Shown: positions 26,793 to 30,806, counted from the stretch's first letter. The stretch is 64,000 nt of DNA from Alphaproteobacteria bacterium (GCA_016780775.1 JADHLI010000008.1:23681-87680); one strand, 5' to 3'. Numbers and translations: made by a program. Notes: generated from the letters alone by a model not told the origin.

Positions 26793-27827
26793 ATGTCTTC
26801 CCATAAACAGAAAAATTCCGCGTCATCAAATGGCACGGGCAGCCAGAGCAAAAGCTTTTATACCCTTCATATCGCGCCGCTTTTGGATGCTGATAAGTCT
26901 GTGCTATTTTCAGTATCTGGTCCCTTTTCTTCTGTTGGACTAACTTCATCCATGCAGGAATTACGCGAGCGTTTGAGCGGGTTTCAGGCAAAGTTTCAGT
27001 TTAACCTATGTGCTGTTTTTATCGAGCTATATCAGAATATTGATCGTTATGGGTTGCCCCTGCCAGACACAGATGAAAAACAAAGTGAACGCGCCTTTGG
27101 GTGTATCCAAATCACCACCGATGATGCAGGCGGTTACCAGCTACGTGCTATTAACCTTGTCTGCCAAGCTGATACATTCCAGCTTGGCGAAAAGCTATCG
27201 GCCCTACAGGCGTTAGATAAAAAAGGGTTGGCCGCACGCTATCGTGCCCAGCTAGCAAGTCTTGCACCCATTTCAGGTAAAAGCCACCGCCGAACAGGGC
27301 TGGGTCTGATAGATATGGCACGGCGGGTTGATGGTCAATTTTCGTTTATGCTTAACAGGGCTGATGATGATCATTGCCTGTTAATTTTGGAGGCTCATTT
27401 TCAAGAAAATTCTTCAACGCCCCTTGCAACAAGGACAGAAAAAATGAACCCTTTTACGCTTAAAGCGTCTTCTCGTTCTCCAAAAGTGACCCTGAGTCCA
27501 GCCGAAAATAAGCTGTTGATATCCGGTGAGTCCTATCCTGAAAATGTAACTGCCTTTTATGCCCAGCTAGAGGCAGCCTTAAAAGATTATCTCGCCAAAA
27601 ATCCAGAAAGGCTGGAGGTGGATATTGCGCTGCGCTATTTTAATTCTGGCTCTGCACATGCGCTACTTACCCTGTTGCGGATGCTTGACAGCTATGCCCA
27701 AAAGGGGTGTGAAATTAGCCTGCTTTGGAAAGTTGTTGTCGATGATGATATTGGGCGCGAATTTGCCCAAGATATTGCCGAGCAAGCACCTAACCTGTTC
27801 TTAAATATCAGCGAGATGAGCGAATAG
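26793..27827 (+). CDS. fusion protein: SiaB-like (anti-sigma-type) protein kinase + SiaC-like DUF1987 phosphoprotein
   Basis: 344 aa. Residues ~25-205 have the SiaB pattern: SGPFSS, VFIELYQNIDRYG, KKGLAARYRAQL, GLGLIDMARR. Residues 218-344, starting at the internal Met (ATG 27444), have the DUF1987/SiaC pattern: ISGESYPEN, LRYFNSGS, ISLLWKVVVDDD. Confidence 0.7.
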   Translation: MSSHKQKNSASSNGTGSQSKSFYTLHIAPLLDADKSVLFSVSGPFSSVGLTSSMQELRERLSGFQAKFQFNLCAVFIELYQNIDRYGLPLPDTDEKQSERAFGCIQITTDDAGGYQLRAINLVCQADTFQLGEKLSALQALDKKGLAARYRAQLASLAPISGKSHRRTGLGLIDMARRVDGQFSFMLNRADDDHCLLILEAHFQENSSTPLATRTEKMNPFTLKASSRSPKVTLSPAENKLLISGESYPENVTAFYAQLEAALKDYLAKNPERLEVDIALRYFNSGSAHALLTLLRMLDSYAQKGCEISLLWKVVVDDDIGREFAQDIAEQAPNLFLNISEMSE

Positions 27828-27848: not shown

Positions 27849-27902
27849 TATCTTCTTGGGTCATATCTTCTTGGGTTATATCTTCTTGGGTTATATCTTC
27901 TA
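27849..27902. repeat. 3.6 x 15-bp tandem repeat (TATCTTCTTGGGTTA)
   Basis: Read directly. It sits in the gap between the SiaB/C fusion gene and the 106-aa ORF, 50-100 bp upstream of the latter's ATG. Confidence 0.95.
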
Positions 27903-27951: not shown

Positions 27952-28272
27952 ATGATAAGTATAGCTAATCAAAGCATCATGCGTTTATATGAGCGTAAAT
28001 TTGGAAATGAACGTGATAAGCAGGCTTTTATTGAGTCAGTCTCGCGTCTAGAAGTGCGCCTAACTGCAGTCGATGTCAGCTTCCGTCTCTACCAGTCTGA
28101 AACCAACCCTCTAATCTTATCAGAGATTTGGTTTTATCCTGATAAGGATACGATGATGTGGGTGCGCGCCATCATTGATAAAAGCGCTCCTCTACTCACA
28201 CAATTTAATGTGGAAACACGCTCTGACACGTTTGCCTTATGCCGTTCCTTTGATGTCTCAGAAGATGATTAG
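27952..28272 (+). CDS. hypothetical protein (106 aa)
   Basis: A good RBS (AGGTGG) lies 7 nt upstream of the ATG. I recognise no family, and the C-terminus is acidic. Confidence 0.5.
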   Translation: MISIANQSIMRLYERKFGNERDKQAFIESVSRLEVRLTAVDVSFRLYQSETNPLILSEIWFYPDKDTMMWVRAIIDKSAPLLTQFNVETRSDTFALCRSFDVSEDD

Positions 28273-28304: not shown

Positions 28305-30176
28305 TCAGGCTTGGTCTATGTTTCTATCCGATAGCTCTTCTTCGGGGCAAAAAGCAAGCACCATTACATCATCGCGGCGTTCTTCACTGCCTTGCCAGCG
28401 GCGCAGACCACGCATCAGACTATTTGCCAGCTTTTTAGGATCATTACTCTTCGCCTCACGCAATAATGCCTCAAAATATCTACTGCCCATCATTCGTGCA
28501 GGCATACCGCCTATTTGGGTAACAATTCCATCTGTTGCTAGCACAAAACATTGACCATCTAGGGGAATTTTATGCCGCTCAGCTGCCAGAGCTTTATCCA
28601 AATATTGATAGCCTAGAGATTGGCGCATAGCCGGATAGCGTGCAAGCGTGCCGCTTTTAGAAACAGCTAGCAGATCGATATTTGCACCCGCATATTCTAT
28701 ATATTTTTTATCCCTACTTAAACAAATAATAGCACAATCCAGCCCATCTGTTGCATTCTGATAGGGCGTAATATCAAGCGCATCACAAATCTCATCATGG
28801 ATATTTTGTAGAATCTCAGAACAGTTTTTAGGGGCTGTCGGCTGTGTCCTAATTCGGTCAATAGCAGCGGAAACCAGCATCACCATAAACCCGCCTGGCA
28901 CGCCATGTCCTGTGCAATCATAAAACGCAATATAGGGCGTCTCACCGATACTAAAATAGGTCAAGAAATCCCCACCCACCAAATCGCGCGGCTGCCAGAT
29001 AAAACGCACCTTTCCAAAATCAGGTCGCAAATCCTGTTCTTTGGCCAGCAGGCGATGCTGAAAATGGCTGGCATAGGCGACCGAATCACCAAAATTCTGA
29101 TTTGCTTCCGCCAGAGCTTCCTGATTTCGGCGAAATTGTGTAACATCGCGCCCAGTGCCACGATAACCACTAAATTTCCCTTTATCACTGAAAACAGGTT
29201 TACCGCTGATATTGGCAACACAATCCCGCCCATCGCCCGTACGAATACGAAATTCAAACTGCCTAAATTCTGTATTCCGCATTAATTTTTCCTGATGATC
29301 ATCCCATTTCCCCTGCTCATCTTGGTCAAGGGCGAGCGAGGCGAGCGTTTTGCCAACCACCTCTTTTTTGTTCAAACCGGTAAGCTGGAAAAACTGGTCT
29401 GAAACATAAGCAAGCTTGAAATTTCTATCGAGCTCATAAAACCAGTCTGTTGAAATTTCTGCCATATCACAAAAACGTGCCTGACTATCCCGCAGTTGTT
29501 TTTGCGTTTTTTCCATCTTGCTATAATAGCGGCGCGCTGTCGCAGCCATCTGATTATAAATCAGCCCCGCACCACCAAGCTGATGCGCATTTACATCTTT
29601 TGCATCTACCGGATTATCTGGTGTTGAGATCAGCATCGCCTGTTGCAGGTGCATCAATGGGCGCATAACAAGCCGTATCAATAGCAGTGTGAACGTCACC
29701 GCAACCAGCAAAATAACAAAGACAGACAGCACCCCAAAAGTTCGAGTGGAAACCCAGTTCTGTTCTTTGTCATAAGCATTATCTAGCCCAAACTCGATAA
29801 CAAACCCTGTATCTTCAACTGGCATAGGAACCTTTATAATGCCTGCTTGCATATGTTCTGGACAGCCCCGTTCAGGCCAGCTCGAAACCACCTTGCCCCC
29901 TTCAAATAAATGCACACAATGAATAGCAGGAAAGGCAAAAAAGCTGCGCATCAACTGCTTGACAGCCTCGCTATCTTGGCGTTGATAGGCGCGCACAACA
30001 AGCGGGCCTATTTCGACAGCAACGATGCCTACCTGTAATCCAGCTTCTGAGCGCGATACTTGGCTACGATATAGATGAAACCCTACAGTAACCAGCCCTG
30101 CCAACAGGAAAACGATTGCCAAATAGACAATCAGAAAGCTGAAAATCAGGCCACGTCGTTCAGGTGATTTGCGCAT
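28305..30176 (-). CDS. SiaA-like membrane sensor phosphatase (TM-periplasmic-TM-HAMP-PAS-PP2C/SpoIIE)
   Basis: 623 aa. Two TM segments (~10-32 and ~147-169) are followed by a HAMP-like segment (RLVMRPLMHLQQAM) and a PAS-like segment (DWFYELDRNFKLAYVSDQFFQLTGL...FRIRTGDGR). The C-terminal SpoIIE/PP2C motifs are LVGGDF, YDCTGHGVPGGFM, LATDGI and RRDDVMVLAF. Confidence 0.8.
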   Translation of the reverse strand: MRKSPERRGLIFSFLIVYLAIVFLLAGLVTVGFHLYRSQVSRSEAGLQVGIVAVEIGPLVVRAYQRQDSEAVKQLMRSFFAFPAIHCVHLFEGGKVVSSWPERGCPEHMQAGIIKVPMPVEDTGFVIEFGLDNAYDKEQNWVSTRTFGVLSVFVILLVAVTFTLLLIRLVMRPLMHLQQAMLISTPDNPVDAKDVNAHQLGGAGLIYNQMAATARRYYSKMEKTQKQLRDSQARFCDMAEISTDWFYELDRNFKLAYVSDQFFQLTGLNKKEVVGKTLASLALDQDEQGKWDDHQEKLMRNTEFRQFEFRIRTGDGRDCVANISGKPVFSDKGKFSGYRGTGRDVTQFRRNQEALAEANQNFGDSVAYASHFQHRLLAKEQDLRPDFGKVRFIWQPRDLVGGDFLTYFSIGETPYIAFYDCTGHGVPGGFMVMLVSAAIDRIRTQPTAPKNCSEILQNIHDEICDALDITPYQNATDGLDCAIICLSRDKKYIEYAGANIDLLAVSKSGTLARYPAMRQSLGYQYLDKALAAERHKIPLDGQCFVLATDGIVTQIGGMPARMMGSRYFEALLREAKSNDPKKLANSLMRGLRRWQGSEERRDDVMVLAFCPEEELSDRNIDQA

Positions 30177-30182
30177 CTTTTT

Positions 30183-30617
30183 TTAATTTCTCTTTAGCGC
30201 CCTATGCAGAAGGTTCCGGTTATCAACAAAAGTATCAACCACCAAAAATATACCCTCACCTGCCCCTGATTTTGGACGCAGCAGGAAATCTACATCCAGT
30301 TTATTACCCTGTGCATCTAACATTGTTACACATAAATAATAATCTTCTCCAAAGGGGATAACCATTGGATGTTTACCAGCCGGATACAGCATTACACGTT
30401 GGGCGGTTTCACGATTTAGATAGACAAAGCTGCCATCTTTTGCGCTTGCGTCTGAGACAAATTTACTGAGGGTTGCCTGCAATCTTGCAGCGGTTTCAAC
30501 TGGCACATCACGGGCGCTAGCAGGCGATATTAGCTGGCCAGTTAAAAGGATAAAAAATAAACACAGCCAAGCCATAGGTTTAAAGACGCATTTATTACTC
30601 TTAGACCCAGCTGTCAT
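30183..30617 (-). CDS. hypothetical periplasmic protein, co-transcribed with the phosphatase
   Basis: I prefer the start at ATG 30617, which has GAGGTGG 6 nt upstream; the ORF track extends to 30668. It has a signal peptide (...LLTGQLISPASA). Its stop lies 6 nt before the phosphatase start. Confidence 0.5.
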   Translation of the reverse strand: MTAGSKSNKCVFKPMAWLCLFFILLTGQLISPASARDVPVETAARLQATLSKFVSDASAKDGSFVYLNRETAQRVMLYPAGKHPMVIPFGEDYYLCVTMLDAQGNKLDVDFLLRPKSGAGEGIFLVVDTFVDNRNLLHRALKRN

Positions 30618-30806
30618 ATAATCCACCTCAAAGTTACAGTAGCGACAATGCGTACTGTTTCTGCCCATATTAATCTGATTAACCTTTCAAGATGCCTACA
30701 TACTGTTATTTATCGAAACAACAGCACTAAGTTCATCTTGACGCGTTCAGTTTAACATGGTTAACTTTTGAGTGCGAAAACGGGTATAAAAACTATCAGC
30801 GGTTTT

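Follow-up and report, generated by a model that had tools for sequence, protein, structure and literature searches.

The SiaABC proteins of Pseudomonas aeruginosa form a recently defined and structurally characterised partner switch, in which SiaB is the kinase, SiaC the substrate and SiaA the phosphatase. SiaB and SiaC make a 2:2 complex that dissociates once T68 of SiaC is phosphorylated, SiaA dephosphorylates SiaC, and SiaC has to be unphosphorylated to bind its target, which it contacts with the alpha2/alpha3 face surrounding T68 (PMC7647112; PMC8457831). T68, in the peptide LLYLNTSSIK, is the experimentally mapped phosphosite of SiaC, and E61 is the predicted catalytic Glu of SiaB (PMC7647112). 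Proteins of the DUF1987/SiaC family are widespread, and their targets are mostly unknown. A kinase that acts on a substrate within its own chain has been described in Mycobacterium tuberculosis, where Rv1364c uses its kinase domain to phosphorylate its own STAS domain at Ser-600 (PMC9138534). Here we describe a gene in which a SiaB-like kinase and a SiaC-like phosphoprotein are fused; it lies in a 64,000-nucleotide stretch of DNA from an Alphaproteobacteria bacterium (GCA_016780775.1 JADHLI010000008.1:23681-87680), which we call the window and in whose coordinates positions are given unless another locus is named.

Kinase and Acceptor Domains of the Sia Type in One Reading Frame

The fused siaB-siaC gene occupies 26793-27827 on the forward strand, as a single uninterrupted open reading frame (ORF) that begins with ATG and has 344 codons plus the stop (344 amino acids). 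A preliminary description of this DNA, made from the sequence alone, had proposed that both proteins share this one 344-codon frame; the frame is as described, the motifs it quoted are all present (GPFS at residues 43-46, VFIELYQNI at 75-83, GLGLIDMARR at 169-178, and YFNSGS at 282-287), and profile searches and structure prediction, the checks it had proposed, each identify the two halves independently. The N-terminal part is a SiaB-family kinase domain (residues 34-202; 26892-27398, forward strand): the NCBIfam model SiaB_fam_kinase (NF038262) matches residues 34-202 with 91.7 bits against a curated cutoff of 85 (93.4 bits for the N-terminal half alone), and Pfam DUF6272 (PF19788) matches residues 66-196 with 75.8 bits against a cutoff of 26.6. 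The C-terminal part is a SiaC/DUF1987 phospho-acceptor domain (residues 218-344; 27444-27824, forward strand), where Pfam SiaC (PF09345) covers residues 224-341 and model positions 2-119 of 120, with 101.9 bits against a gathering cutoff of 24.5. Between them lies a linker (residues 203-217; 27399-27443, forward strand), which reads QENSSTPLATRTEK over residues 204-217. A sequence search of the PDB with the fusion returned as its only significant matches SiaB (6kko_A, E = 2.4e-9) and SiaC (6kko_C, E = 9.6e-9; 6k4f, about 1e-8). The Pfam search gave no HATPase_c match in the fusion, and STAS_2 reached only E = 0.014-0.07 (14-16 bits, below the cutoff of 29.2).

We modelled the monomer with AlphaFold2 (AF2), using an alignment of 20 fused homologues. 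The model has a mean predicted local distance difference test score (pLDDT) of 83.9; residues 1-18, 161-166, and 207-214 are disordered, the last of these lying in the linker and having pLDDT below 50. Foldseek matched the N-terminal half of the model to SiaB 6kko_A, with a template modelling score (normalised to the target) of 0.79 and E = 1.3e-8, and the C-terminal half to the SiaC chains or entries 6kko_C, 6k4f, 6kkp, and 7e6g, with scores of 0.86-0.92. By profile, sequence, and fold, one polypeptide combines a kinase domain of SiaB type with an acceptor domain of SiaC type. Annotation pipelines would label the protein only as “SiaB family protein kinase,” and its substrate domain would thereby be hidden.

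The preliminary description had placed the phospho-acceptor at the Ser of YFNSGS, and the HMMER alignment puts it there: S285 in Y282-F-N-S285-G-S287 stands opposite T68 of SiaC in Y-L-N-T-S-S. The codon of this predicted acceptor is TCT (27645-27647). The acceptor column holds Ser (99) or Thr (39) in 138 of 139 SiaC-domain hits, the remaining one having a gap, and it is Ser in all close orthologues of the fusion. On the kinase side, where we drew the assignment of SiaB active-site residues from PMC7647112 only, E78 (27024-27026) aligns with the Glu of SiaB YIEMTQNI, that is, with E61; the N-box Asn is N82 (27036-27038), and a glycine-rich lid, RTGLGL, lies at residues 166-172. None of E78, N82, N121, and G171 varies among 20 fused proteins.

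Two scores weigh against equating the halves with their P. aeruginosa counterparts: the SiaB equivalog model (NF038264) gives 72.3 bits and does not reach its cutoff of 225, and the SiaC equivalog model (NF038265) gives 55-58 bits and does not reach its cutoff of 150. Because these scores fall so far below the cutoffs, the fusion is, as judged by the models, a distant member of the Sia family and not an orthologue of PA0171/PA0170.

The Fusion Is Retained in Related Genomes

The fusion is retained in L001, L002, L003, L004, L005, L006, L010, and L014 (seven other assemblies, at 31-65% identity). Its closest database relatives (P0002-P0004) share 59-65% identity with it and are all fused, with lengths of 344-354 residues; more distant fused relatives, at 31-37% identity, are found in L006 (a metagenome-assembled genome, or MAG, of Ca. 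Puniceispirillaceae), L010, and L014, and the linker of the L006 fusion has 6 residues. A stop or frameshift at the junction, which the preliminary description had named as the sign of two ordinary adjacent genes, is found in none of the orthologues, and the open junction recurs, at identities of 31-100%, in assemblies from NCBI, ENA, JGI, and Logan. We judged synteny only at loci with enough flanking DNA (L001, L002, L006, and L010), and there the gene order is conserved: a zinc-dependent alcohol dehydrogenase, in some a rhodanese, the fusion, an ORF of 104-106 residues, and then, in convergent orientation, a gene for a PAS-PP2C phosphatase of about 620 residues together with an ORF of about 145 residues. 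On these comparisons the fusion is real, old, and evolutionarily fixed, in a marine SAR116-type (Ca. Puniceispirillaceae) alphaproteobacterium.

The fusion protein of the NCBI MAG GCA_965655985.1 (L001) is 100% identical to that of the window, and its PP2C protein is 98.9% identical. Because the PP2C proteins are only 98.9% identical, the window would come from a closely related strain or assembly and not from L001 itself.

A Split Counterpart Points to Two Ancestral Genes

One syntenic locus, L015, carries the two genes apart. Its neighbourhood matches that of the window (abhydrolase/OsmC, alcohol dehydrogenase, rhodanese, then a convergent PP2C gene and an ORF of 155 residues), and siaB (DUF6272, 201 residues) and siaC (127 residues, P0008) are separate genes with 38 nt between them. 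The separate SiaC of L015 shares 48% identity with the C-terminal half of the fusion, and its start, MDEFYCKATMRTPEV, aligns exactly with M218-NPFTLKASSRSPKV. Because the starting Met of the L015 SiaC aligns with M218, M218 represents the old start codon of siaC; the alignment also bears out the earlier claim that the SiaC module begins exactly at an internal Met. The linker, a low-confidence segment of the AF2 model, looks like a translated intergenic spacer, since its 13-15 residues are the length expected from reading through about 38 nt, and the AAGGA of the fusion sits at the expected position of the siaC ribosome-binding site. The two-gene origin of the fusion is thus shown by comparison of the loci. 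We propose that siaB, for a GHKL-like Ser/Thr kinase, and the adjacent siaC, for a STAS-like phosphoprotein, would have become one ORF after loss of the siaB stop, with the spacer turned into a flexible linker in which the start codon and ribosome-binding site of siaC survive. Identities in the SiaC domain are about equal (43-50%) between the window clade, the L006/L010 clade, and the split L015, and this spacing favours no particular order of fusion and fission.

A Conserved Internal Start Site at M218

The ancestral initiation region is still recognisable in the window at 27431-27446 on the forward strand: a Shine-Dalgarno (SD)-like AAGGA (27431-27435) is followed by an A-rich spacer and by ATG 27444-27446 (M218). 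The AAGGA lies where the preliminary description had noticed it, with 8 nt between it and the ATG instead of about 9. The stretch A-AGG-A(C/T)A-GAA-AAA-ATG is identical in four close orthologues, which share 60-65% amino acid identity and about 65% nucleotide identity; as a 16-nt string, it is identical at 15 of 16 positions. Elsewhere in the gene, only 31% of the invariant degenerate residues use the same codon in all four orthologues, and AGG serves for only 7% of the Arg codons in the window. Even where the encoded residues differ (T/K, T/I), the SD bases are retained. At the nucleotide level no 18-mer is more conserved than the junction, which shares first place with the catalytic motifs, although the linker just upstream of it is variable. 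We also scanned the 441 internal in-frame ATGs of the window's long ORFs, the fusion gene being within the scanned set, and only one has AAGGA at -16 to -5. Beyond the close relatives, the same boundary reads AAGGAG-N9-ATG in L010 and has a Met in L014, and a Met stands exactly at the start of the SiaC domain in about 10 of 26 distant fused proteins. Judging by this conservation, the chances that the internal SD-ATG also yields some free 127-residue SiaC seem to us evenly balanced.

Several observations weigh against initiation at this site. The syntenic orthologue in L006 (P0007) has no ATG at the boundary, the nucleotide conservation of the SD-ATG involves only about three independent lineages, and the gene's mRNA is not significantly more open at the internal ATG than elsewhere (minimum free energy, 6th-60th percentile). 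A recognisable SD core is present in only 37% of the window's genes, which makes dependence on SD sequences moderate. Promoter and terminator scans around the gene gave matches at the level of the shuffled background.

Two readings of the site have to be weighed. The SD-ATG may be a non-initiating relic or a pause site, with the full-length fusion as the sole product and the conservation due to amino acid constraint on R214-x-E216-K217-M218 or to SD-mediated pausing; we regard this as a serious possibility that falls somewhat short of an even chance. It would account for the invariance of R214, E216, K217, and M218 as amino acids in the close clade, for the short helix that AF2 draws at residues 212-216, for the loss of the ATG from L006, which keeps the fusion, and for the negative result on mRNA structure; but the codons are identical as well as the residues, the rare AGG included, the SD bases persist across non-synonymous changes, and the helix is of low confidence (mean pLDDT 61 over residues 211-220).

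The gene may instead have two products, a reading that we find plausible but less likely than not: the internal SD-ATG would give rise to a substantial amount of free 127-residue SiaC, which would be the real signal carrier, and the tethered SiaC domain would serve the kinase mainly as an intramolecular pseudo-substrate or autoinhibitor, or as a device that sets stoichiometry. The near-identity of the SD-spacer-ATG set against the low share of common codons, the retention of the rare AGG and of SD nucleotides across the T/K and T/I changes, the singular position of this site among the internal ATGs scanned, and the boundary signals of L010, L014, and the distant fusions all speak for it. A boundary Met, however, is also expected as a leftover of repeated recent fusions, and the missing ATG of L006/P0007, the unexceptional local mRNA structure, and the infrequent SD cores of the window's genes count on the same side.

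An extension of the two-product reading, unlikely in our estimate, is a two-speed switch, in which the tethered kinase-SiaC chain would hold an intramolecular substrate and autoinhibitor and free SiaC from M218 would travel to a target other than a diguanylate cyclase, possibly the 106-residue protein encoded downstream; the ratio of the two forms, set at translation initiation, would tune the threshold. If true, the switch would follow a regulatory design that no described partner-switch system is known to use, and the retained initiation region could add to the cases in which a single bacterial gene encodes two proteins of different function.

A Proposed Tethered Partner Switch

For the fusion itself we propose the following switch. 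The kinase domain, with its E78/N82 active site, would phosphorylate S285 of the SiaC domain at very high local concentration, either in cis or across a homodimer. Transfer across a homodimer is also possible because SiaB:SiaC is a 2:2 complex, and by this analogy trans phosphorylation within the dimer would be just as possible as cis. Tethering would make phosphorylation effectively independent of concentration, and phospho-S285 would be the default (OFF) state. The membrane PAS-PP2C phosphatase, on sensing its signal, would dephosphorylate S285 and leave the alpha2/alpha3 face free for the target (ON). As a whole, a fixed siaB-siaC fusion that works as a tethered partner-switch module, with an output other than SiaD and possibly a second product, is probably the best explanation of the locus. 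One result does not favour its intramolecular form: the predicted template modelling score of the AF2 monomer is 0.56 though both domains are confident, and the model (with its 20-sequence alignment) lends no support to a defined cis-docked pose.

The scores well below the equivalog cutoffs could also reflect a degenerate module, with the SiaB half acting as a pseudokinase or scaffold and with constitutive tethering that needs no phosphorylation. We consider this very improbable, because nothing in a system without phosphorylation would explain why E78, N82, N121, and G171 stay invariant, why the acceptor position always holds Ser or Thr, and why a PP2C gene always lies nearby.

A closely related environmental variant of the gene (L013:139-1137; 88.8% identity by tblastn) has been called as two ORFs. 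What separates them is one in-frame stop, at codon 98 within the kinase half; the junction is open and identical, and the scaffold diverges from the window after about residue 272. The short L013 scaffold may be poor or chimeric, or it may carry a pseudogenised allele; if the stop is real, the internal start would be the only remaining source of SiaC. That assembly, sequencing, or annotation merged two ordinary neighbouring genes through a lost stop or frameshift is effectively refuted: the split syntenic version in L015 and the two ORFs of the short L013 scaffold might suggest it, but the same open junction recurs in assemblies from all four sources, and the L013 stop is inside the kinase domain, away from the junction, on a scaffold that itself diverges.

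Fusions Recur Across the SiaC Family

We ran an exhaustive HMMER profile search against 1.84 billion representatives, of which 2,717 matched at E <= 1e-3, and classed the top 150 (clusters at 50% identity) with local hidden Markov models of each half. SiaC alone was the most frequent architecture (94), followed by SiaB-SiaC (23, about 18 of them outside the orthologue group), SiaB-SiaB (16), SiaB-SiaB-SiaC (8), SiaC-SiaC (7), and SiaB alone (5); fusions of the SiaB-SiaC or SiaB-SiaB-SiaC type therefore number about 30 among the top 150 representatives. A word-indexed homologue search with the single protein returned 4 hits, and the spread of the architecture is visible only by the exhaustive profile search. 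On a neighbour-joining tree of 140 SiaC domains, which is a rough tree, the fused tips are scattered and at least 18 state changes are needed, suggesting repeated fusion or fission in the family. Kinase-substrate fusions, together with the SiaB-SiaB-SiaC, SiaB-SiaB, and SiaC-SiaC forms, would thus be a recurrent and apparently repeatedly evolved theme.

The further architectures of these families, which are likewise undescribed, include SiaB-SiaB-SiaC proteins of about 500 residues (P0012, P0014, P0022, and P0027), tandem SiaB-SiaB proteins (P0025, P0032, P0057, and many 379-residue proteins of Bacteroidota, where this form is very common), and tandem SiaC-SiaC proteins of about 260-280 residues (P0034, P0049, and P0060).

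Source names in the family are “hypothetical protein” or “SiaB family protein kinase,” and the fused proteins are unnamed; precomputed Pfam labels already give PF19788 and PF09345 on them. The preliminary description had known of no characterisation of the architecture, and a full-text literature search found no description of a SiaB-SiaC fusion of the Sia type; the rarity that it implied was overstated, given the share of fused proteins in the profile search and the Pfam labels for both domains.

Neighbouring Genes and Candidate Outputs

Convergent with the fusion is a gene for a SiaA-like membrane PAS-PP2C phosphatase of 623 residues (28305-30176, reverse strand), made up of transmembrane, PAS, and PP2C parts and identified by Pfam SpoIIE and PAS matches. 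Its best NCBIfam match is SiaA (164.5 bits over the PP2C region only, far below the equivalog cutoff of 700), and it is syntenic in L001, L002, L006, L010, and L015. It is the presumed phosphatase for phospho-S285. A PP2C gene lies within a few kb of every fused locus that has enough flanking DNA, including distant ones: in L011/L012 a sCache-HAMP-PP2C gene overlaps the fusion by 4 nt, and in L008 a SpoIIE-type gene is found two genes downstream. The PP2C of the split locus (L015:6709-8232, reverse strand) has 508 residues and no Pfam PAS match, and its resemblance to the window's PP2C is interrupted close to the PAS region (about residues 280-338). The SiaB-SiaC fusion, the 106-residue ORF, and the PAS-bearing phosphatase co-occur in this small sample.

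The 106-residue ORF (27952-28272, forward strand) follows the fusion; each syntenic locus with a fused gene has it, and the split L015 lacks it. It is conserved at 70-73% in close relatives and at 39-41% in L006 and L010, and its homologues are restricted to the clade. It has no Pfam, NCBIfam, or PDB-profile match, and its AF2 model has a pLDDT of 44. By position it is a candidate partner or output of the switch, and the sole positional candidate. The ORF of 106 residues that follows the distant fusion P0070 is a different protein (hhalign probability 0.1%), the equal size being coincidental. The 124-nt gap between the fusion and the 106-residue ORF contains, at 27849-27901, a 15-nt tandem repeat, TATCTTCTTGGGTTA, in 3.5 copies with 97% match; the gap is much shorter at the orthologous loci (48 nt in L002, 9 nt in L006), and the repeat appears to be lineage-specific.

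Directly upstream of the PAS-PP2C gene is an ORF of about 144-161 residues with a signal-peptide-like N-terminus (30183-30668, reverse strand). This secreted-looking protein has counterparts (41-62% identity) at every syntenic locus, L015 with its split genes among them, and matches no Pfam or NCBIfam family. The gene is probably co-transcribed with the PAS-PP2C gene, and its product may be a periplasmic accessory to the sensor domain of the phosphatase.

We searched by regular expression for a cyclase output. The motif G[GAS][DE]EF does not occur in any of the six frames of the 64-kb window (a pattern search, not a Pfam scan of every ORF), and the SiaD-stalk-like pattern [KR]I[SGT]D..Q does not occur in the window or the syntenic loci; the window likewise contains no second copy of SiaB or SiaC. 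Because neither a GGDEF motif nor a SiaD-stalk-like motif is present in the 64 kb, the output of the fusion module, as far as these motifs tell, is not a neighbouring SiaD-type diguanylate cyclase.

The genes directly downstream of two distant fusions, P0160 (L012:3885-5279, forward strand) and P0070 (L008:8129-8449, forward strand), encode proteins that have a coiled-coil motif near the N-terminus; it reads RITKISDRNQRR in L012 and KITKIGDASQRK in L008. This motif is close to the SiaC-binding stalk of SiaD, R80-I-S82-D-R-Y-Q86, in which S82 and Q86 hydrogen-bond to T68 of SiaC. The L012 protein has a metallo-beta-lactamase-fold domain, the L008 protein is a coiled coil of 106 residues, and neither has GGDEF; the motif has 0 matches in the 64-kb window and five other loci. 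The resemblance suggests a portable SiaC-docking helix on non-cyclase outputs. More generally, the loci indicate that Sia-type switches are wired to outputs beyond cyclic di-GMP synthesis.

Comparison With Known Systems

Public proteins with the same two domains (PF19788 and PF09345; P0007, P0011, P0021, P0028, P0070, P0159, P0160, and P0162) have an architecture identical to that of the window's protein, with PP2C genes nearby wherever the context is readable. They differ in sequence (18-37% identity to the window's protein), in their linkers, which often have 0-8 residues, and in their neighbours and probable outputs, which are a coiled-coil protein or a metallo-beta-lactamase-fold protein with the SiaD-stalk-like motif.

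The P. aeruginosa SiaABCD system (PA0172-PA0169; 6KKO, 6K4F, 6KKP, 7E6G) shares with the window the fold and family of the kinase, the SiaC/DUF1987 fold, the position of the acceptor at the N-terminus of helix alpha2, and a neighbouring membrane-anchored PP2C, the catalytic domain of the window's phosphatase being most like SiaA. There, however, kinase and substrate are separate, whereas in the window and seven orthologous assemblies they are one polypeptide; the acceptor is Thr there and Ser in the fusion; and the window's phosphatase carries a PAS domain in addition, its gene running convergently with the fusion instead of sharing its transcript. The window's system also stays below the equivalog cutoffs, has two extra conserved small ORFs (106 and about 150 residues), and, by motif search of its 64 kb, has no SiaD diguanylate cyclase or stalk docking motif. 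The fused locus and its split syntenic counterpart form a natural experiment on what tethering does to the leak, the threshold, and the speed of reset of such a switch.

As an idea, the fusion of a kinase to its substrate has a characterised precedent in the analogous RsbW/RsbV family, namely Rv1364c (PAS-PP2C-RsbW kinase-STAS; PMC9138534). Both proteins covalently join a partner-switch kinase to the STAS-type domain that it phosphorylates (Rv1364c) or would phosphorylate (the fusion), and a PAS-PP2C phosphatase opposes the kinase in Rv1364c as one is presumed to do in the window's system. Rv1364c belongs to the RsbW HATPase_c and canonical STAS families, whereas the window's protein has no HATPase_c match and a STAS_2 score below cutoff; its phosphatase is part of the chain, and that of the window is a separate membrane protein; and it regulates SigF, whereas no sigma factor is implicated in the window's system. 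Rv1364c is thus an analogue and a functional precedent for a tethered kinase-substrate switch, not a member of the same family. Within a known family of partner switches, the window's fusion is a variant that recurs but is uncharacterised.

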